Assembly (NCBI GenBank): GCA_041653955.1
Contig: JBAZEH010000002.1
Location: 24,380-88,379 of the forward strand
From: Candidatus Omnitrophota bacterium
Lineage (GTDB): Bacteria; Omnitrophota; Gorgyraeia; Gygaellales; Profunditerraquicolaceae
DNA: 64,000 nucleotides
Reading direction: 5' to 3'
The position numbers and the translations under genes are program-made. A model generated the notes under the pieces. That model ran no database searches, was not told where the DNA came from, and was given only the letters and a program-made list of their open reading frames with translations. Below are positions 41,601-50,744 of this stretch, piece by piece. Position 1 is the stretch's first letter; the number at the start of each line of letters is the position of its first letter.

Positions 41601-43766
41601 ATGTCGGCAGTCAATTTTTTATGGTTAGCCCCTGTAGGTTCAATAATAGCACTTTTGTTCGCCTGGTACCTCGCGGCTTCTATCATGAAGAAAGGCGAAG
41701 GCAATGATAAGATGCGCGAGATAGCACAGGCAGTGCGGGTGGGCTCAAGGGCGTATTTAAAGAGGCAGTATTTAGGCGTATCTATATTTTTTCTGGTAGT
41801 ATTCTGCGTCCTTATGGTCCTGGCCATAAATAAATACCTGGTTATATTTGTTCCGTTCGCATTCCTCACCGGCGGCCTCTTCTCCGGCCTGGCTGGTTTT
41901 ATCGGTATGTCTATAGCTACCCAGGCGTCATCCCGTACCACTAATGAAGCAATGAAGGGTTTAAATTGCGGGCTGCGGGTGGCGTTTAATAGCGGCGCGG
42001 TCATGGGTATGGTGGTCGTGGGGTTAGGGCTCCTGGACCTGTCTATATGGTATTTTTTCTTAAATGCTTATTACGGAAGCTATAGTATCCCCGCGTGGAT
42101 ACCGCAATGGTTGTCTCCGTACCTTACATGGGCCTTTCAGGCGCACCCGTTACCTATCGGGACAGATAAGATCACCGCTATTACTTCCACGATGCTTTGT
42201 TTTGGTATGGGCGCCAGTTCGCAGGCGTTATTTGCCCGCGTGGGCGGAGGCATATTCACCAAGGCTGCGGATGTCGGCGCGGATTTAGTCGGTAAAGTTG
42301 AAGCGGGCATTCCCGAGGATGACCCGCGTAACCCCGCGGTTATCGCGGATAATGTGGGCGATAATGTAGGAGACGTGGCGGGTATGGGCGCGGACCTTTA
42401 TGAGTCTTACGTGGGTTCTATCGTGGCTACCGCGGCTTTAGGCGTGGCTGCGGGTTTGGGGGTTTCCGGGGTTACTGTTCCTATGGTAATGGCCGCGGTA
42501 GGGGTGGTGGCTTCCATTGTCGGGACATTCTTTGTCAGGTGCAGGGAAGAGTCTACTCAAAAGATATTATTGGTGGCGTTAAGAAAGGGGATATTTGTCA
42601 GCGCCGGATTAGTGGCCCTGATATCTTATTTCCTGGTTAAATATACTCTCGGTATTGAGCATATGGGAGTTTACTGGTCGGTATTATCGGGTTTGATCGC
42701 CGGAGTATTAATAGGATTATCTACCGAATATTTTACCTCAAGCCATTTTAAACCCACGCGGTCAATAGCCGAGGCGTCTTTAACCGGGCCCGCGACCGTT
42801 ATTATCGGGGGTATATCGGTAGGGATGATGTCAACGGCGATACCGGTGATCGTAATAGGCGTCGCGATATTATTGAGCTATTTTCTTTCGGGCGGCGCCG
42901 CTAATCCTAACGCCGGACTTTACGGAGTGGGGATTTCCGCGGTAGGCATGCTTTCTACCCTTGGAATAACACTGGCTACCGATGCCTATGGCCCGGTTGC
43001 TGATAATGCCGGAGGTAACGCGCAGATGGCGGGCCTTGATCCTGAGGTAAGGAAAAGGACGGATGCCCTGGATTCATTGGGCAATACTACCGCCGCTACG
43101 GGCAAAGGTTTTGCTATAGGTTCCGCGGCCTTGACCGCGCTTGCTTTAATAGCCGCTTATCGCGACCAGGTATCTTTATACGGGAAAGAGCTTAGCTTAA
43201 ACCTCATGCAGCCGAGTGTGCTGGTGGGCTTATTTATTGGGGCTATGCTGCCTTTCGCGTTCTGTTCTATGACGATGAGCGCGGTAGGGAGGGCGGCAGG
43301 AAAGATCGTAGTAGAAGTGCGTAGGCAGTTCAAGGAGATACTCGGGTTGATGGAAGGCAAGGCTAAGCCGGATTATGCGCGTTGCGTGACCATAGCCACT
43401 TCAGCGGCGCAGAAAGAGATGATCATCCCATCGCTCATGGCGATAATAGCTCCTATTGCCGTAGGGCTATTAGTCGGTGTAGAAGCTGTGGCAGGGCTTT
43501 TGACCGGAGCGACCGTAACAGGGTTTGCGTTGGCGGTAATGATGGCGAATTCCGGCGGCGCCTGGGATAATGCCAAGAAATATATAGAGGAAGGCCATTA
43601 CGGAGGGAAAGGTTCTCCCGCGCATAAGGCAGGGGTTGTCGGCGATACGGTAGGGGATCCTTTTAAAGATACCTCCGGCCCAAGCCTGAATATACTCATC
43701 AAGCTTATGTCCATGGTTTCGATAGTTTTCGCATCCTTCGTCATCTCCAACTCTTTCTTCAAATAG
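41601..43766 (+). CDS. hppA: membrane-bound proton-translocating pyrophosphatase
   Basis: [28 protein letters not shown], about 16 TM helices. Confidence 0.9.
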
Positions 43767-43823
43767 GGACACCTTTTCTGCCAATCGAGGGACACCCTTT
43801 TAGCCAAAGCTAAGGGTGTCCCT
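43765..43823. repeat. left inverted repeat with internal REP hairpin; overlaps the hppA stop codon
   Basis: agggacaccttttctgccaatcgagggacacccttttagccaaagctaagggtgtccct. Confidence 0.8.
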
Positions 43824-43830
43824 TTTCTTT

Positions 43831-44313
43831 TCAGGTTGAGTCGACAAGATCCAAAAGCTTGCTTTTGTTTCCTAAAGTCCTATTTCTATAACTGCTCCAG
43901 ATATATTCCATTGGCGACTGAGTTAATCCTTTCCTGACCGGATTCATTTCTACATAGTACACGCACTCTAGAAAATAATCATCTTTTTGTATAATCATAC
44001 TCTTGAATCTGCCTTGCCAAAGATGACCTACTTTTCTGTATTTCTTATTAAACCATGTAGTGTATGTTTGGGTTATACCTTGCATGAGGATAGGAAGATT
44101 CTCGGGTTGTTTGGGTTGTAATATTAAATGAATGTGATTGGGCATAAGGCAATAGCAGAATAATTTGAAAAGATATTTTTTCTTATAATGTTTTAACAAT
44201 TGTAAATACTTAGCAAAATCAGAATCCTCCAGAAATATTCTTTCTCTTTGATTCCCCCTGTTAACAACGTGATAGCATACATTATTTAACAGAATTCTTG
44301 CTCCTCGTGGCAT
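43831..44313 (-). CDS. RAYT / IS200-like Y1 (HUH) transposase
   Basis: HUH motif [15 protein letters not shown] and [12 protein letters not shown] (Tyr region) typical of TnpA_REP. RBS aaaaggaggt upstream. Confidence 0.75.
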
Positions 44314-44394
44314 TTATACCACCTCCTTTTAAATAAATAGACGTACTTAATTGCATTTTCTAACAACAAATTTTTACTCTTAATTTTACTCTTA

Positions 44395-44453
44395 AGGGAC
44401 ACCCTTAGCTTTGGCTAAAAGGGTGTCCCTCGATTGGCAGAAAGGGTGTCCCT
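44395..44453. repeat. right inverted repeat with internal REP hairpin
   Basis: agggacacccttagctttggctaaaagggtgtccctcgattggcagaaagggtgtccct. Confidence 0.8.
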
Positions 44454-44497
44454 AAAATAGTTATTTTTGTTGGGTTTTGTGGTATAATAAGCCCGTT

Positions 44498-45100
44498 ATG
44501 GATGATATTGAGTTTGTCCGCAGGTGTGTTAAAGGGGACAAGCGTTCGTGGGATGCGTTTGTAGAGCGGTACGCGTCCTTAATATACAATTATATTCATA
44601 GCACCCTCAAGATAAAAGGCCATACCTTTTCGCAGGAAAATATCAACGACCTCTTCCAAGAGATAATCCTTTCCTTATTCAAAGATAATTTCAGGAAATT
44701 AAGCACTTTTAAGGGCAGGAACGGCTGTAGCTTAGCCAGCTGGCTAAGGCAGGTGACTGTCAATTTTACTATTGACCACCTGCGCAGATTAAAACCCGCG
44801 CTTTCTCTTAATAATGATATAGGAGATAACTTAAGTTTCGCGGATATGCTGGTTTCTGATTCTCCGCCTGTAACCGATACCTTGAATCAGGAGGAAAGGC
44901 TTATGCACCTGAAGGATTGCATTGAAAGGCTCGGGATTAATGATAAGTATTTCCTGGAGCTGCATATTTATAGGGGGCTGAGTATAGAAGAGTTGAGGGT
45001 ATTCTTAAAAGTTTCACGCGCGGCTGCCGATATGCGTAAATCCCGTATTGTTGAGCGGTTGAAGGAGTGTTTCAGAAAAAAAGGGCTTATTTTACGTTAG
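44498..45100 (+). CDS. ECF-type RNA polymerase sigma factor (sigma-70 regions 2 and 4)
   Basis: Region 2 starts at about FVERYASLIYNYIH. Region 4 HTH LSIEELRVFLKVSRAAADMRKSR. An extended -10 TGgTATAAT at 44480-44488 lies just upstream of the ATG. Confidence 0.75.
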   Translation: MDDIEFVRRCVKGDKRSWDAFVERYASLIYNYIHSTLKIKGHTFSQENINDLFQEIILSLFKDNFRKLSTFKGRNGCSLASWLRQVTVNFTIDHLRRLKPALSLNNDIGDNLSFADMLVSDSPPVTDTLNQEERLMHLKDCIERLGINDKYFLELHIYRGLSIEELRVFLKVSRAAADMRKSRIVERLKECFRKKGLILR

Positions 45101-45143
45101 ATTTCCGGAGCAGTTGCGTCTATTGTAGAGGGAAGGAAGTGAG

Positions 45144-45851
45144 ATGACGCAGGAAAGATTGGAAGAATTAATAAGGGCGGTGTATAGAAGATGGAAAGAG
45201 GCGCAAGGCCCGGCGCAGGATCCGCATCCGGATGAGGAGGCCTGGGTTTCTTTTCTTGAAGGAAAGCTGGGGGCAAAAGATGAGGCGCGCGTAAAAAAGC
45301 ACCTGGTAGCCTGCCAGGGCTGCTCTGAGGTTCTGGCTGTGCTGGCCCGGTTGAGACAGGTACCCGGGGAAACGCCGCCTAAAGCGCTGATAGAATACGC
45401 CAAAAGCCTGGTCGCAGCGCAAGATATAAATTCCGCCGCGCAGATAGTCATTATGCTCAAGGAGAAGGCAATGGAGGTATTGTCCATTACCGGGGATATC
45501 CTTATAGGCAGGGAGTTTATCCCTGCGCCTGTGTTGCGCAGCCGCCGGATAAAAGAATTTAAGGATGAGATCACCGTCTTAAAGGATTTTAAAGATATAA
45601 GAGTAGAGGTAAGAATAGAGAGGAAGGGAGCTCATCTATTTGATATGTTCGTATATGTTAAAGATAAACAGGCTAATCGCGTAATCAGGGACCTTAGGGT
45701 CACCCTCCTTAAAGACGATTTAGAGCTTGAATCCTACCTCACATCTTCAGACAAGGTAACTTTTGAGCACGTGCTGGCCGGTAAATATAATATTGAGATA
45801 TCGAATATTGACGACAAGATCGCTTCAGTATTGCTGGACATAAGAAAATAA
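45144..45851 (+). CDS. zinc-finger (ZAS-type) anti-sigma factor, cytoplasmic
   Basis: HLVACQGCSEVL (H-x3-C-x2-C). Position directly after the ECF sigma gene. No TM. Confidence 0.65.
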   Translation: MTQERLEELIRAVYRRWKEAQGPAQDPHPDEEAWVSFLEGKLGAKDEARVKKHLVACQGCSEVLAVLARLRQVPGETPPKALIEYAKSLVAAQDINSAAQIVIMLKEKAMEVLSITGDILIGREFIPAPVLRSRRIKEFKDEITVLKDFKDIRVEVRIERKGAHLFDMFVYVKDKQANRVIRDLRVTLLKDDLELESYLTSSDKVTFEHVLAGKYNIEISNIDDKIASVLLDIRK

Positions 45852-45856
45852 TAAGG

Positions 45857-48058
45857 ATGGAAGAAGCGGATACTTTGGTCTTGGAGATATTAAGGCAGGA
45901 CGGCGCGCTTGCGATGAGTATCATGGAAGGCGATGGGCTCGTCCAGACCGTAAAACACTACAGCAGCCTCACCGTATCATTCTCCGAAATAAATAAGATA
46001 TGCCGGGAAGTGATGTCTATAGTCAGCAGGGCCAGCAGGAAAGGCGCCCTGCTTTCTGATTATACGGATAACATTAAAAGGGCGGGGCAGATGCTATGGG
46101 ACCATCTGTTGACGCGCCAAGTCAAGGGTAAGCTGGCCTCGACAATGATCAAAGACCTCATTCTTTCCATAGACGAAGAGTTGATTAATATCCCGTGGGA
46201 ACTGCTTTATGACGGACAAGATTTTTTATGCTTAAAATTCAATCTGGGGAGGTTAGTCAGGACTAAAGAGCCGGTCGTAGTTAAGGCATACCGCAGCTTA
46301 AAGAGCGCCCCAAGGATGTTGATATTGGCTGACCCTACAGGAGACCTGAGGTCTGCCTACCTTGAAGGGCTGTATATAAAGAACCAGTTTGAACGCAAGA
46401 GGGGCCAGATAGGGGTAGATTTTAAATCCACCCGTATCGACGCGCTATATGTAAAGAAGAACTTGCGCGATTACGATATAGTGCATTTTGCCGGCCACTG
46501 CGAATATGACGAGGGTGATCCGCGGAATAGCGGATGGATCCTGAATGACGGAAGGTTCACTACGGCAGAAGTGCTCGCTTTAGGTGAAAGCCTTTCTTTT
46601 CCGAGCCTGATATTCTCTAATGCCTGTTATTCGGCAAAGGCCGCAGCCGGTACGGCAGAGGAGGATTACCACGAAAAAAACTATAGCCTCGCATCCGCGT
46701 TCCTGTTTTCCGGGGTCAGGCATTATATCGGCACTATATGGAAAGTGGAAGACCCCGTAAGCCTTTTCTTTGCCAAAGAATTCTACGCGCATCTGGTCAA
46801 AGGCGATTCTGTAGGCGAATGCATTCGCCTCTCACGCCTGAAGTTGATAAAGGAGTATGGTATCGGTGCCATATTATGGGCAAGTTACCTTCTTTACGGG
46901 GACCCTAATTTCGTATTGTTCAGGCGCAAGCCGCGTGCCGTGCCGTTTAAATTCAGGAGGGATATCTCTTCGTATAAGAGGGGGCTGGCAGGAGTTCTCA
47001 TTGCGCTTTTTGCCATATCCGCGGTTTTATTCCTGCATATCTGGTTGCCTGCGAGGAACCCTACGGCCATCTTTTCACTAATGAGATCCAGGAGATTATT
47101 CCTTAAAGGCGATAATCGGGAGGTTATCTCCATCTGCAGCGGGATCATAGAGAAAGAGCCTTCTTTCCTCGCGGTTTATCCGTTGATCGCGGATACGTAC
47201 GAGAGGCTGGGAGATAGGGGCAGCGCTTTGAGGTATTATTTTGATTACGCCCTTGCCAGCGAAAAGAAGAGGGATAAAAGGCATCTATCATCGGCTTATA
47301 TCGGTATCGCGTGGTGTTATCATCAACAAGGGGTACGCCAGGAGGCCCTTGATTTTTATAATAAGGCGGTCGCGTTAAGCAGGCAGACACGCGACAAATT
47401 GAATGAGGCTTCCGCCCTAAGAAAACTAGCGGTCTGGCATATAGATAAGGAGGATTACGATAAGGCGCTTGAGTTGCTGACAAAAAGCTCAGAGATCAAC
47501 CGTGAAAGAAAAGGCTCAAAAGAGCACGCTTACAATCTTGCCTGCGATTATTTTGATATGGGCCTGGTTTTTGCCAATAAGGATGATTATCCCGCGGCTA
47601 AGGAGTTTTATCATAAGAGCCGTGTTATATTCGAGAAGCTTAACCTGAGGAACGAATTAAGCGACTGTTATTTCAACATAGGAGAGATATGCTTTTTTGA
47701 GAAAGAATACCATAAGGCCCTTGATTATTATATGCGGGGGCTGAAGATAGAAGAATCGCAGGGGAACAGGCCGGGCCTGGCGAGCGGTTATAATATGATA
47801 GGCGAATTATACGCGCAGATGAACAACTTTGATGAGGCCGAAAGGTTCTTTGACCGTTCGATAATTATCTCCAGAAAAATAAATGCGCGCCCGGAATTGG
47901 CGTCCGCGTGCTATAATATGGGTATTCTTTATAAAAATAAAGGCAAGAAAAATAAGGCGCGGGATTACCTGAGGCAGGCGCAGGAGATATACCGGTTGAC
48001 GGATATATCCTGTTACGAGGAGATAAAAGAGGAGCTTATAAGCCTGGATAGCATATAG
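45857..48058 (+). CDS. CHAT-domain (caspase-like) protein with central TM helix and C-terminal TPR repeats
   Basis: Caspase-like His/Cys dyad in HFAGHCEYDEGD and IFSNACYS. TM GLAGVLIALFAISAVLFLHIWL. Six or more TPR-like repeats. Start 6 nt after the anti-sigma stop. Confidence 0.8.
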   Translation: MEEADTLVLEILRQDGALAMSIMEGDGLVQTVKHYSSLTVSFSEINKICREVMSIVSRASRKGALLSDYTDNIKRAGQMLWDHLLTRQVKGKLASTMIKDLILSIDEELINIPWELLYDGQDFLCLKFNLGRLVRTKEPVVVKAYRSLKSAPRMLILADPTGDLRSAYLEGLYIKNQFERKRGQIGVDFKSTRIDALYVKKNLRDYDIVHFAGHCEYDEGDPRNSGWILNDGRFTTAEVLALGESLSFPSLIFSNACYSAKAAAGTAEEDYHEKNYSLASAFLFSGVRHYIGTIWKVEDPVSLFFAKEFYAHLVKGDSVGECIRLSRLKLIKEYGIGAILWASYLLYGDPNFVLFRRKPRAVPFKFRRDISSYKRGLAGVLIALFAISAVLFLHIWLPARNPTAIFSLMRSRRLFLKGDNREVISICSGIIEKEPSFLAVYPLIADTYERLGDRGSALRYYFDYALASEKKRDKRHLSSAYIGIAWCYHQQGVRQEALDFYNKAVALSRQTRDKLNEASALRKLAVWHIDKEDYDKALELLTKSSEINRERKGSKEHAYNLACDYFDMGLVFANKDDYPAAKEFYHKSRVIFEKLNLRNELSDCYFNIGEICFFEKEYHKALDYYMRGLKIEESQGNRPGLASGYNMIGELYAQMNNFDEAERFFDRSIIISRKINARPELASACYNMGILYKNKGKKNKARDYLRQAQEIYRLTDISCYEEIKEELISLDSI

Positions 48059-48067
48059 GAGATTACT

Positions 48068-48631
48068 ATGAGGTATGTATCGCTGTTGATCGCGGTTTTA
48101 TTTTTATTGAATATCGCAGGCTGCTCTATTCCTGTGTCTTCAACCAGAAGCTCTTTATGCAGCTTTACGAAAGAGGAGAAGAGAAGTAAAAGTATGTTTA
48201 TGGCGAAGAGCGCGGTTACCGTTAAGGATTTCCGCGAGAACGAGGCATACGAGGAAGACATGGAAGGCCTTAAAGAAGATGTAGAGGAGTATATCTTGCT
48301 GCATCCTGAATTGAGCGAACAGGTAAAAAATGACTTGCGCCAGATAAAGGTAACGCGGGGGATGGGGGAAGAGGAAGTACTTTTATTATTAGGTAAACCG
48401 GATAAGATGATGCGGTCCGCGGCTAAAGGTAAATACGGGGCTTCGCAGGTGTGGATATATAAGATAAACAAGATACGGGCGTTCACCATATTCATCTTTC
48501 CGGTATTTTTCCCCCATGAAGCGTATTACCTGTATTTTAGAGATGGCGCCCTGGCTGAGATAGAAAGACATTCCCTTAAACAGACTGTCCAGCAGGGTAA
48601 AGATTCAATACCGGGAGAGAGAAGGAATTGA
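48068..48631 (+). CDS. hypothetical lipoprotein
   Basis: Lipobox LLNIAGCS. Confidence 0.5.
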   Translation: MRYVSLLIAVLFLLNIAGCSIPVSSTRSSLCSFTKEEKRSKSMFMAKSAVTVKDFRENEAYEEDMEGLKEDVEEYILLHPELSEQVKNDLRQIKVTRGMGEEEVLLLLGKPDKMMRSAAKGKYGASQVWIYKINKIRAFTIFIFPVFFPHEAYYLYFRDGALAEIERHSLKQTVQQGKDSIPGERRN

Positions 48632-48653
48632 TACCGTGAGCCGGGAGGATAAT

Positions 48654-49061
48654 ATGAAAGTAATACCGATCATCTGCCTGGCAGCGCTTCTTCTGCTATC
48701 GGCGGGAGATGTTTATGCCCAGAATCAATCACCGCAGCCCGAAGAGCAGGATGCTGTGATTGAGGCTACAGCCGGAGAATATTTTACTATCAATCTTGAG
48801 TCTAATCAGGTGCTGGGATTGAAATGGCGGCTCGCCAAGCCCATTGATCCGGATATGGTTAAACTCATAAACGTAAAGTTCCAACGGGCCACCGCCAGGA
48901 TATTGGCCATACCCGGAGAAGAGACCTGGAGATTCAGGGCAATGAAATCAGGTACGACGATTATACATTTAAAGTACACAAGCTCCTCTAATAGAAACGC
49001 CCCGCCCAAACAGGAGAAGATATTTACGATAAACGTAAAAGAACCTCCTAAATCAAAATAA
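48654..49061 (+). CDS. hypothetical secreted protein
   Basis: GGGAGGA RBS, ATG at 48654, signal peptide MKVIPIICLAALLLLSAGDVYA. Confidence 0.5.
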   Translation: MKVIPIICLAALLLLSAGDVYAQNQSPQPEEQDAVIEATAGEYFTINLESNQVLGLKWRLAKPIDPDMVKLINVKFQRATARILAIPGEETWRFRAMKSGTTIIHLKYTSSSNRNAPPKQEKIFTINVKEPPKSK

Positions 49062-49144
49062 AGGCCCAGGAACAACCCCCTGTATAAAAAATACCGTTAG
49101 ATCGGGCTTCTTCTTTCGTCTATTGTTCTTGAAAGGAGGAGTAA

Positions 49145-50704
49145 ATGAAAAAATATATTGTGTTTGGGGCAATAGCGGTTTTCTTTTGTTTTTGTGTGGG
49201 GTTTGAATGTTTGGCAGAGGAGTTGTCATGGCAGAATATCAGCAGGGAGAATATGGATTTGAGGGCACTCCTGGTGGATGCGGATAATCCGGCTAATATT
49301 TATATAGGGGCGTCCGGCAGGATTCTAAAAACAGCCGATAGCGGGGATATCTGGAGGAATGCGCTCTCGGTAAAAGGAGGAGACCCGCGCATAAACTTCT
49401 TATCTTTTGATTATGGCCGTAAAGATCATTTATACGCCGCTACGGGAAACGGGTTGTTTTATAGCCTCAACCGGGGAGACACCTGGAAGAGGATATTTAG
49501 AGGGAAGGATTATCTTGAGAGTGAGTGCACCTGCGTGGCAGTTTTACCGGGCATTATTTACCTTGGGACGAAAGGAGGGTTGTTTACCAGCCAGAACAGG
49601 GGCCGCAGCTGGCGTAAGGAACCGGGAGAATTAGGCAGCAGCCCGATCGCGGCTTTAGCGTCTGATTCAGGAGGGCCCGCGTATATCTATGCCGCTACTA
49701 CGAACAGCGTATTCATAAATAAACACCGCGGCGGGGCATGGGAGAAGGCTATTATCGGAGGGTTGTCCAGAAGAGATACTATTGAAACAGAAGGGGGAGA
49801 TGAATATAGCGATGAAGAGGAGTTATCTTCCGGCATAAGGCATATTGCCATTGACCCTCGTAATCCGGATTGCCTTTACGCCGCTACATCCGAGGGCATA
49901 TATAAAAGTTGCGACCGGGGGCGTGCCTGGGAGGCATTTGCGTCTTACGGGTTGCTTAATAAAGAAACAAGTTTTATCCTTTTTTCCGGCAGGGGGAGCC
50001 TTTATGCTATTAGCAGGGGAGGGATATTTGAGTATGGAGGGGGCCGCTGGCAAGAGTTATCGATCGGCCTGGCTGCGGAAAAGATAAGGTTTTTGGCTTC
50101 GGATAAACATAATAATTTATACGCCGCCTGCGATAGAGGGTTATTTAAGACAATACGGACCGGCTATATCCCCGCGGAAGGTACAATCTCATTATATTAT
50201 GAAGGTGAGCCCGGGATCCGGGATATCCAGAAGGCGGCTATTCAATACGCGGAGGTGGGCGCGAATAAGATAAAAGAGTGGAGAAGGCGCGCGGCCAGGA
50301 AGGGGATATTGCCGCGGCTTACCGTTGGATTAGACAGAAGCGCCACGGATCTCTGGCATTGGGAATCCGGCTCAAGCACAAAGGTTGAGGATGATATATT
50401 AAGGAAAGGGCGCGATGTTATAGAATGGGATATAACTTTAAGCTGGGATCTAAGCGAGCTTATATGGAGCAGCGAGCAAACTTCAATAGATGCGCGCTCG
50501 CGGCTGATGGTGCAGTTGCGCGAAGATATACTGGATGAGGTGACGAAATTATACTTTGAACGCATAAGGGTAAAGGTGGAGCTGGATAGCCTGTCTATTG
50601 AAGATAGAAAGAAGAGATTTGACAGGGAACTTAAATTGAAAGAGCTTACCGCCTCTCTTGACGGGCTTACAGGAGGATATTTTTCATCACGCATTATAGA
50701 CTAA
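49145..50704 (+). CDS. secreted beta-propeller-like protein (BNR/Ycf48-like repeats) with C-terminal coiled region
   Basis: Signal peptide. Repeated SxDxGxxW-like motifs: ADSGDIWRN, NRGDTWKRI, NRGRSWRKE, HRGGAWEKA, DRGRAWEAF. Confidence 0.6.
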   Translation: MKKYIVFGAIAVFFCFCVGFECLAEELSWQNISRENMDLRALLVDADNPANIYIGASGRILKTADSGDIWRNALSVKGGDPRINFLSFDYGRKDHLYAATGNGLFYSLNRGDTWKRIFRGKDYLESECTCVAVLPGIIYLGTKGGLFTSQNRGRSWRKEPGELGSSPIAALASDSGGPAYIYAATTNSVFINKHRGGAWEKAIIGGLSRRDTIETEGGDEYSDEEELSSGIRHIAIDPRNPDCLYAATSEGIYKSCDRGRAWEAFASYGLLNKETSFILFSGRGSLYAISRGGIFEYGGGRWQELSIGLAAEKIRFLASDKHNNLYAACDRGLFKTIRTGYIPAEGTISLYYEGEPGIRDIQKAAIQYAEVGANKIKEWRRRAARKGILPRLTVGLDRSATDLWHWESGSSTKVEDDILRKGRDVIEWDITLSWDLSELIWSSEQTSIDARSRLMVQLREDILDEVTKLYFERIRVKVELDSLSIEDRKKRFDRELKLKELTASLDGLTGGYFSSRIID

Positions 50705-50721
50705 GAACCGGGATACTTCTT

Positions 50722-50744
50722 GCTTTGGCTTAAGGAGTGTCCCT
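50722..50744. repeat. degenerate solo REP-like half-site related to the RAYT flanking repeats
   Basis: gctttggcttaaggagtgtccct versus agctttggctaaaagggtgtccct in IR-R. Confidence 0.4.

Follow-up and report, generated by a model that had tools for sequence, protein, structure and literature searches.

A probable REPtron between hppA and an ECF sigma factor gene in an Omnitrophota genome

What occupies the space between the membrane pyrophosphatase gene hppA and an ECF-type sigma factor gene in the Omnitrophota DNA analysed here, a stretch of 64 kb referred to below as the window? The entire interval from the hppA stop codon to the sigma promoter is taken up by a small gene and the inverted repeats around it, which could be read as an insertion sequence, as the edge of an acquired island, as host regulatory DNA or as a resident transposase gene among its own repeats. 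The original prediction placed here a 160-aa RAYT-type Y1/HUH gene on the minus strand between inverted REPs, and profile, motifs and fold all agree with it. With a probability of roughly 0.8, we interpret the locus as a REPtron, i.e., a chromosomal gene for a RAYT-type HUH/Y1 nuclease, probably single-copy and vertically inherited, that lies between an inverted pair of its cognate REPs. The window RAYT encodes a single-strand DNA transposase that has been domesticated, and the flanking REP is presumably the repeat on which it acts. The features are as follows.

41601-43766, plus strand: hppA, membrane pyrophosphatase (Pfam H_PPase, 901 bits; NCBIfam sodium-translocating pyrophosphatase)
43764-43824, unstranded: left inverted-repeat arm, 61 nt, half-REP plus REP hairpin, 98% complementary to the right arm
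43765-43787, plus strand: outer 23-nt half-unit of the left arm, AGGGACACCTTTTCTGCCAATCG, corresponding to the first 23 nt of the AATCGG-type REP (family profile E = 0.005)
43788-43823, unstranded: REP hairpin of the left arm, AAAGCT loop type (family profile E = 2e-13)
43823-43831, plus strand: T-tract TTTTCTTTT, immediately 3' of the hppA-side hairpin
43831-44313, minus strand: RAYT gene, 160 aa (Pfam Y1_Tnp, 8e-16; NCBIfam REP_Tyr_transpos; predicted fold)
44320-44328, minus strand: RAYT Shine-Dalgarno sequence AAGGAGGTG, called from sequence, with an AGGAGG/GGGAGG block kept in ten loci
44337-44363, minus strand: RAYT upstream block TTAGAAA-N-CGTCTAT, aligned in the 8 loci that retain the upstream REP
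44394-44454, unstranded: right inverted-repeat arm, 61 nt (hairpin 44395-44430, half-unit 44431-44453)
44480-44488, plus strand: extended -10 of the sigma gene, TGGTATAAT, 9 nt upstream of the ATG
44498-45100, plus strand: ECF-type sigma factor gene (TIGR02937 sigma70-ECF, 61 bits, cutoff 42.9; Pfam Sigma70_r2)
50709-50744, unstranded: possible decayed REP hairpin, 3' of the last sigma-cluster gene, weak fold

Assignment of the protein to the RAYT family rests on profile, conserved motifs and predicted fold. The translated reading frame contains the segments NHIHLIL and WQGRF, with an HUH motif at H60/H62, the catalytic tyrosine at Y120 and the pair N124-P125. It scores 80.5 bits against the equivalog model NF047646 (REP_Tyr_transpos), 0.5 bit above the cutoff of 80. 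Membership of IS200 was rejected, the score on that profile being 18.8 bits at a cutoff of 55. The AlphaFold model (pLDDT 86.8) finds 4ER8, the E. coli TnpA-REP, as its best PDB match over the full length (E = 3e-8, TM 0.71/0.69), while IS200/IS605 TnpA structures reach TM values of 0.5-0.56. By direct sequence comparison with 4ER8 (E = 1.8e-3), H60-I-H62 and Y120-VEM-N124-P125 align with its HUH motif and Tyr115. An alignment with 42 homologs of 56-81% identity to the window protein has 36 invariant columns, and H60, H62, W99, Q100, Y120, N124 and P125 are unchanged throughout. Among 120 homologs listed, nearly all measure 157-165 aa and most exactly 160. The AT-rich interior noted originally is real: the RAYT reading frame has a GC content of 34.4%, compared with 51.3% for hppA and 47.4% for the window. 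Since values of 31-39% were found at all ten loci examined, low GC is a trait of the whole RAYT gene family. The upstream block TTAGAAA-N-CGTCTAT occurs once in the window (0.01 expected) and is, judging by its conservation, a probable RAYT promoter or regulatory site. A reading as an ECF-type promoter (GAAA-N-CGTC) was dropped, since the spacing is approximately 12 nt instead of the 16-17 nt needed.

The two arms were originally described as a 58/59 inverted pair of 59-nt repeats. They do form an inverted pair, but each is 61 nt long, and direct comparison gives 60/61 complementary positions with a lone mismatch at 43774. Likewise, the left repeat had been said to begin inside the hppA stop codon; it overlaps the stop, and in fact the whole TAG (43764-43766) lies within the arm. 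The predicted distance of 44 nt from the end of the right arm to the sigma ATG (44498), and the position upstream of the extended -10, were confirmed from the coordinates. Each arm consists of a 36-nt REP hairpin and a 23-nt half-REP; the outer unit, AGGGACACCyTTTCTGCCAATCG, repeats the first 23 nt of a REP. The family profile matches the right arm with E = 2e-13 for the hairpin and 7e-6 for the half-unit. A hairpin with a 10-bp stem had been proposed. There is indeed one in each arm, AGGGACACCCTT-TT-AGC-CAAA-GCT-AAGGGTGTCCCT, but its stem has 12 bp, followed by a 2-nt bulge, a 3-bp upper stem and a 4-nt loop. Folded as DNA it reaches -16.6 kcal/mol (z = -5), and none of 200 shuffled sequences was as stable. 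The 10-mer REP core, allowing at most one mismatch, occurs 14 times in the window against 2.4 expected. An Rfam scan of 43400-44800 returned chance-level matches only, far under the gathering scores. That the arms are almost identical here suggests that sequence was recently copied, or converted, from one flank to the other. Since arms have diverged from each other in relatives, arm identity is no general requirement.

Towards hppA, the REP hairpin has a predicted RNA fold of -29.9 kcal/mol and is followed by UUUUCUUUU. T-runs stand in the same place in the related loci L080, L031, L016, L118, L120 and L123, and a hairpin with a T-tract 3' of hppA is found in most species, including two without a RAYT there. 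From folding and this comparison with relatives, hairpin and T-tract probably act as an intrinsic hppA terminator; a promoter and terminator scan called sub-stems only, not the full REP hairpin. The suggested influence on hppA termination thus becomes plausible, the hairpin being followed by a T-tract in the window and most relatives. The companion suggestion of an influence on sigma expression was not borne out: the TGnTATAAT promoter, 6-9 nt ahead of the ATG, keeps its TATAAT in 8/8 species compared, independently of the RAYT/REP element. K is the C-terminal residue of the hppA product, in the window as in all relatives examined.

The REP hairpin is one of a family whose members are dispersed, mostly outside genes, over many Omnitrophota genomes, several to a genome. 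A scan with the stem pattern yielded more than 113 loci; most of the matches listed come from Omnitrophota MAGs, in which a perfect stem occurs as many as 6 times per genome. The apparent density is at least a few perfect copies per Mb. With more than 100 related hairpins in Omnitrophota genomes, the REP family postulated at the outset is real. ORFs take up 86% of the sequence under a greedy longest-ORF mask (a stop-to-stop mask covered 94% and was too permissive), yet 74 of 108 REP hairpins lie wholly outside them. A T-run on one side accompanies 28/108 of them, and hairpins without a RAYT are far commoner than those with one. The loop, left unconstrained in the search, shows a consensus common to 105/124 hairpins, and two loop subtypes can be distinguished. 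Loops are more similar within than between genomes, a value reached by 0/2000 permutations. The window's own variant, TTTTAGCC..., was recovered by a scan of JGI metagenomes at the window locus alone, other copies carrying other loop variants. Across 105 oriented hairpins, a conserved tetranucleotide at -4 to -1 (GT[AG]G foot) is absent.

Two higher-order arrangements recur. All 22 REP doublets (22/22) are inverted and pair both loop subtypes, with a 14-nt spacer in 16 of them. Composites of a half-REP and a REP keep an identical 23-nt register in 27/27 cases at other loci, and the 59-61-nt arms are instances of this recurrent module, the first 23 nt of one REP followed by a complete REP. For this half-REP plus REP module in 23-nt register we found no description in the REP/RAYT literature searched, nor did our literature search yield a published description of REPs or RAYTs in Omnitrophota.

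Beyond the flanking arms, one further REP copy, of marginal significance, occurs in the window. A degenerate solo REP had been reported at 50722-50744. A possible degenerate copy lies there, but as a full-length hairpin at 50709-50744; it matches the REP at 27/36 positions in a hand alignment and has a marginal family profile E of 0.33 (blastn 0.6). At the orthologous spot, L081 carries a genuine REP doublet. As the window offers this one marginal extra copy, we infer the REP population of this genome from its relatives.

Comparison with relatives shows conserved synteny. The order hppA-RAYT-sigma is common to five lineages (the window, L080, L113, L118 and L123), and hppA-sigma-antisigma-CHAT is kept in these and in L031 and L016. 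The original prediction had called for a search for an empty site at the hppA-sigma junction of relatives. Two lineages indeed have no RAYT there, but the site is not empty, as it holds a REP doublet, and five lineages including the window carry the gene. The doublet of L016 agrees in subtypes and orientation with the flanks of RAYT in L118, but encloses no gene. Hairpins of the type GGGACACCC flank 10/10 related RAYT loci, eight on both sides in inverted orientation and two downstream only. RAYT and its flanks were encountered in at least three genomic contexts: the hppA-sigma junction, a DUF192/secretion-gene context common to the genomes behind L116 and L121, and a third; the unit has therefore changed place, or was rearranged, at some stage. 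L120 and L071 have a different neighbour at the junction beside RAYT or REP, thus breakpoints coincide with the site over long time scales. Pairwise identities of RAYT and hppA are correlated (Spearman 0.72), the window contains one RAYT copy, and a scan found no close RAYT relatives on viral contigs.

Among known systems, REPtrons and GGGGWSAS "TIRtrons" come closest. A REPtron is a tnpA-REP/RAYT gene flanked by REPs, with E. coli TnpA-REP (4ER8) as the model (PMC3333891, PMC3479197, PMC8266576). Shared with it are the HUH/Y1 core with Y---NP, 4ER8 as top structural match, the position of the window gene between inverted REPs, and REPs that are imperfect palindromes with a bulge; in relatives, two REP subtypes alternate in orientation as in BIMEs, and the copies are dispersed and mostly extragenic. 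Differences from E. coli are the remote sequence similarity of the window RAYT (E = 1.8e-3), the absence from Omnitrophota REPs of the GTAG tetranucleotide that is conserved at the 5' foot in canonical ones, a lower apparent copy number of at least a few perfect copies per Mb, and the host phylum. The missing foot, the profile margin of 0.5 bit, the multiple contexts, the one marginal extra REP copy in the window and the loop variant confined to the window locus in the JGI metagenomes are the points at which the locus sits less easily with a REPtron. REPINs, two inverted REPs acting as a non-autonomous mobile unit (PMC3116915, PMC3337134), resemble the inverted hairpin doublets of the relatives (22/22, with the short 14-nt spacer in 16), the enclosure of RAYT by one REP of each orientation, and the L016 junction doublet with its match to the L118 flanks. 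Unlike in REPINs, the two halves of a doublet are of different loop subtypes, a free doublet is absent from the window, and the family has the half-REP plus REP composite in 23-nt register as a second module. IS200/IS605 TnpA shares the HUH/Y1 fold and the hairpin-recognising chemistry; the window RAYT differs by Y---NP instead of Y---Q, by inverted instead of direct hairpins, by the lack of a nearby tnpB and by its single copy in the window.

A further relationship is indicated with the TIRYTs of TIRtrons (Di Nocera et al. 2013, PMC3733652), which correspond to subclass 2.1 (Quentin et al. 2018, PMC6006769) and group 1 (Bertels et al. 2017, PMC5581495). The repeat core GGGGACAC, present in the flanks of L080, L116, L118, L120, L121 and L123, fits the published TIR motif GGGGWSAS; the window counterpart, AGGGACAC, matches it at 7/8 positions. 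The window motifs NHIH / WQ / YVEMNP are nearest to the subclass signature NHVH / W[EQ] / YIELNP. A 235-aa plasmid protein of Rhodospirillum rubrum, flanked by a perfect 19-nt inverted repeat bearing GGGGTCAG, shares 41% identity with the window RAYT in an ungapped alignment ending at residue 143; the protein's likeness to subclass 2.1/group 1 is thus drawn from motif similarity and identity to one plasmid protein. At 160 aa, the window RAYT is without the C-terminal extension of approximately 75 aa found in that subclass (median length 238 aa). Quentin et al. (PMC6006769) report no REP-like structures adjoining subclass 2.1 genes, whereas the present RAYT is flanked by 36-nt hairpins that belong to a dispersed family. 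That a core-only TIRYT/subclass 2.1 enzyme maintains a genuine two-subtype, BIME-like REP population across Omnitrophota is an idea we put forward tentatively. If it held, "TIRs" and REPs would be one phenomenon, the 23-nt register (27/27) and the 14-nt spacer (16/22) would be footprints of the points at which the enzyme cuts and joins, and the L016 doublet would be either a REPIN derived from a REPtron minus its gene or the kind of REPIN into which a RAYT became nested.

The resemblance to TIRtrons raises the question whether RAYT and the two 61-nt arms transpose as a unit, with the arms as terminal inverted repeats of an autonomous insertion sequence. The 60/61 identity of the arms, the recurrence of a REP-promoter block-RAYT-REP unit in at least three contexts and the position of the nearest plasmid relatives (approximately 40% identity) between perfect inverted repeats with the GGGGTCAG motif would all suit such an element. 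Yet it is present once in 64 kb, the exact arm is confined to the window locus in the JGI metagenomes, and two of the three contexts are each common to more than one genome (hppA-sigma in five lineages, DUF192 in L116/L121). In addition, RAYT divergence follows hppA divergence, most hairpins come without a RAYT, the IS200 profile failed and the arms are diverged in relatives, so that we regard autonomous transposition as very unlikely. Even more improbable is that the element marks the edge of an accessory island at 44.5-50.7 kb, acquired or rearranged in recent times and comprising the sigma/CHAT cluster, as originally proposed. REP-like sequences at both cluster ends in the window and the changed neighbours at the junction in L120 and L071 gave some reason for this view. 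However, the 50.7-kb copy is statistically marginal, the GC content of the region is 46.5% against 47.4% for the window, and the cluster adjoins hppA in no fewer than six further lineages, whether or not RAYT is present. Given this conservation, the sigma/CHAT cluster is not an accessory island.

The terminator-like hairpin leads to another alternative, namely that RAYT is an inactive relic and that the hairpins are host regulatory DNA (hppA terminator, sigma-promoter insulator) kept by transcriptional selection alone. It agrees with the hairpin and T-tract 3' of hppA in most species, the two without RAYT included, with the one-sided T-runs of 28/108 family hairpins, and with effects of REPs on termination and mRNA stability as described in PMC3733652. 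Against it stand a full-length RAYT with invariant catalytic residues, whose Shine-Dalgarno sequence and upstream block are kept across homologs of 56-81% identity, and a loop conservation that exceeds the needs of a terminator stem. Moreover, genome-specific loops, the 23-nt register in 27/27 composites and the 14-nt spacer in 16/22 doublets point to an active sequence-specific process. We therefore consider the relic interpretation unlikely.

For the REPtron, we infer catalysis on these REPs and the direction of REP spread by homology with E. coli TnpA-REP. RAYT would bind the REP hairpin in single-stranded DNA, cut via Tyr120 with the metal held by His60 and His62, and rejoin the strands; it would thereby spread and homogenise the REPs of its own genome rather than move itself. 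At this locus, the hppA-side hairpin with its T-tract most likely ends hppA transcription, and such a terminator would in addition insulate RAYT, which is convergent with hppA, and the sigma promoter downstream.

An account can thus be given of the 690 bp that separate hppA from the sigma gene: they contain no island boundary and a likely terminator hairpin. The kind of element is already known; the phylum Omnitrophota is new to it as far as the literature was searched. REP/RAYT biology thus gains an uncultured phylum with small genomes, along with a RAYT resembling the little-studied GGGGWSAS/TIRYT type that possesses a hairpin REP family. Testable hints at the cutting and joining sites come from the 23-nt half-units and from the doublets, which are inverted, heterotypic and mostly have a 14-nt spacer, and the presence or absence of RAYT at one orthologous junction may offer a route to the history of REP doublet and transposase.

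The element at the junction of hppA (membrane pyrophosphatase, 41601..43766, plus strand) and the ECF sigma factor gene (44498..45100, plus strand) is a real, well-formed REPtron, i.e., a gene for a REP-associated tyrosine transposase (RAYT) flanked by REPs, the same arrangement as described earlier (PMC3333891, PMC6006769). Its parts are located as follows:

43764-43824, left inverted arm, 61 nt, 60/61 positions complementary to the right arm
43831-44313, minus strand, RAYT open reading frame (ORF), 160 aa
44337-44363, minus strand, conserved non-coding block TTGTTAGAAA-N14-CGTCTATT, situated approximately 10 nt upstream of the Shine-Dalgarno sequence of RAYT
44394-44454, right inverted arm, 61 nt, 60/61 positions complementary to the left arm

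Each arm carries a 36-nt hairpin, AGGGACACCCTT-TT-AGC-CAAA-GCT-AAGGGTGTCCCT, with a DNA fold of -16.6 kcal/mol (z approximately -5), and an outer 23-nt unit that duplicates nt 1-23 of such a hairpin. The left arm contains the TAG stop codon of hppA (43764-43766), 7 nt separate the left hairpin foot from the RAYT stop codon, and the sigma ATG (44498) lies 44 nt beyond the right arm end. Thus, the element occupies the entire hppA-sigma spacer. The original prediction was right in identifying a RAYT with REPs, and its ORF, inverted arms (61 rather than 59 nt long) and positions of the flanking genes were confirmed. A 12-nt tandem duplication, TTTTACTCTTAA x2 (44372-44395), directly adjoins the right arm on its inner side and was not seen in the upstream regions of relatives. 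Metagenome contigs from other samples, L002/L133 (window 43779-45038) and L138 (44394-45396), start or end within the inverted-repeat arms; assemblies of the locus in other samples break at the repeat.

The protein matches Pfam Y1_Tnp (8e-16) and barely exceeds the NCBIfam cutoff for REP-associated tyrosine transposases (80.5 bits vs 80). In the PDB, only E. coli TnpA-REP (4ER8) was matched by sequence, H60-I-H62 being aligned to its HUH motif and Y120 to its catalytic tyrosine, so that by homology the catalytic mechanism would be the same. 4ER8 is also the best match (TM 0.71) of the predicted structure (built from 42 homologs, pLDDT 86.8), IS200/IS605 transposases being poorer (TM 0.5-0.56). 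Membership in IS200 itself was rejected, as the NCBIfam model failed (18.8 bits vs cutoff 55). Most of the best 120 of 1823 hits have exactly 160 aa, and where a source gives a name, they are labelled Omnitrophota. H60, H62, W99, Q100, Y120, N124 and P125 are invariant in the 42 homologs (56-81% identity to the window protein), and a strong Shine-Dalgarno sequence is kept in 10/10 loci. The block TTGTTAGAAA-N14-CGTCTATT, probably a promoter or operator, is kept in all eight loci that retain the upstream REP (window and seven related) and missing from the related loci L076 and L032, which have both lost this REP. RAYT is a maintained gene and not decaying.

Among known types, TIRYT/TIRtron of Di Nocera et al. 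(PMC3733652) is nearest by sequence and repeat motif; the inverted repeats of this type have GGGGWSAS in common, which fits GGGGACAC observed here (in the window, 7 of 8 positions agree). Of the subclasses of Quentin et al., 2.1 most resembles the motifs NHIH, WQ and YVEMNP, but the window RAYT lacks the C-terminal extension, and hairpin REPs adjoin it, which were not found beside subclass 2.1 genes (PMC6006769). In contrast to canonical REPs, the repeats here lack the GTAG foot; upstream of oriented family hairpins among the matches listed, no GTAG-like foot was conserved. A Rhodospirillum rubrum plasmid encodes a 235-aa Y1 'transposase' (L141; NC_007641.1, 32160-33788) with 41% ungapped identity to RAYT, which lies between perfect inverted repeats of 19 nt with GGGGTCAG. 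A 235-aa Y1 'transposase' of approximately 40% identity was also observed on an Iodobacter fluviatilis plasmid (L142; NZ_CP025783.1, 4650-6308), the flanking inverted repeats of both plasmid genes having 19-26 nt and containing GGGGTCAG. Our literature search found no paper connecting Omnitrophota with REPs or RAYTs.

The repeat family was searched with AGGGACACCC-N12-20-GGGTGTCCCT in one genome per species, a pattern that sets the stems and leaves the loops free. It yielded at least 113 loci, mostly in Omnitrophota MAGs. Among the matches listed, a genome holds up to 6 copies, the span is almost always 36 nt, and 105 of 124 hairpins share the loop consensus TTTyw-GCy-AA-(AGCT or TCGG)-rA, whose alternatives define two discrete loop subtypes (AAAGCT and AATCGG type). 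Of 108 copies listed, 74 do not overlap any ORF, coding DNA making up 86% of the sequence. Three arrangements recur, namely the lone hairpin, the inverted doublet and a half-unit plus hairpin module, the window's type. All 22 doublets listed are forward-reverse and pair both subtypes, with a 14-nt spacer in 16 of them, while the half-unit module has a spacer of exactly 13 nt in 27/27 listed cases and thus a 23-nt register. Loops listed differ by 3.2 mismatches within and 5.3 between genomes (0/2000 permutations as extreme), the signature expected from propagation or homogenisation inside each genome. Typical copies and doublets also occur in a MAG labelled Firestonebacteria (L011) and in several 'uncultured Planctomycetales' MAGs (e.g., L023, L033, L045), which may be due to imprecise taxonomic labels, contaminated bins or a broader distribution.

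Family hairpins accompany RAYT in 10/10 related loci examined, typically an AAAGCT-type hairpin upstream and an inverted AATCGG-type hairpin downstream. Since the two flanks of relatives are unlike each other, the 60/61 arm identity is specific to the window's lineage, which points to one flank having been copied recently from the other. RAYT has 31-39% GC in every species vs 40-47% in the surrounding DNA; its AT-richness is hence a family trait and does not indicate recent import. Close relatives were not found on the viral contigs scanned. Pairwise identities of RAYT and hppA correlate (Spearman 0.72, from non-independent pairs and with much signal from one divergent taxon), which fits mainly vertical descent. 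The order hppA-REP-RAYT-REP-sigma-antisigma-CHAT is common to the window, L080, L113, L118 and L123. L120 and L076 keep hppA-RAYT with a different or unknown right neighbour, L116 and L121 carry RAYT with its flanks beside DUF192 and secretion genes, and L032 in yet another location. In L120 (JAZDLA010000088.1) and L071 (CAWDSS010000010.1), a different neighbour adjoins hppA-RAYT or the sigma cluster, and the change falls precisely on the REP/RAYT junction, a repeat site with which breakpoints of rearrangement coincide over long periods.

The hppA-side RNA hairpin folds with -29.9 kcal/mol and is followed by UUUUCUUUU, and T-runs follow it in most relatives, which makes the proposed role of the REP hairpin in hppA termination plausible. 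For sigma expression downstream, on which an influence was also proposed, we compared the window (44455-44500), L080, L113, L118, L123, L031, L016 and L071. In all eight species TATAAT is perfectly conserved, mostly as TGnTATAAT, 6-9 nt before the ATG, and the sigma promoter is independent of the element. No Shine-Dalgarno sequence precedes the sigma ATG in these eight species, which together with the short distance of TATAAT suggests a leaderless mRNA.

The region of 44.5-50.7 kb had been taken for a likely recently rearranged or accessory island. We observe that the sigma/CHAT cluster is kept beside hppA with or without RAYT and has ordinary GC content, which does not support this view. The cluster (44498-50704), syntenic in several Omnitrophota species, encodes the ECF sigma factor, a 235-aa protein matching zf-HC2 weakly, a 733-aa CHAT+TPR protein, a small protein, a chagasin-family peptidase inhibitor and a BNR-repeat protein. 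The window sigma scores sub-threshold (32.8 bits vs 100) with the model of RpoE-like sigma factors associated with type III-E CRISPR; the trio of sigma, anti-sigma-like protein and CHAT protease recalls the Craspase RpoE-Csx30-Csx29 logic. The predicted solo REP near 50.7 kb extends to a full-length degenerate hairpin (50709-50744; 27/36 by hand alignment), non-significant alone (profile E = 0.33), and is plausible as a decayed REP since the orthologous position is occupied by a genuine doublet in one relative.

In L031 and L016, hppA adjoins sigma with a REP doublet alone between them, in L016 with the subtypes and orientation of the L118 RAYT flanks. This contrast of RAYT presence and absence at an orthologous junction and the very regular repeat modules are the most useful leads.
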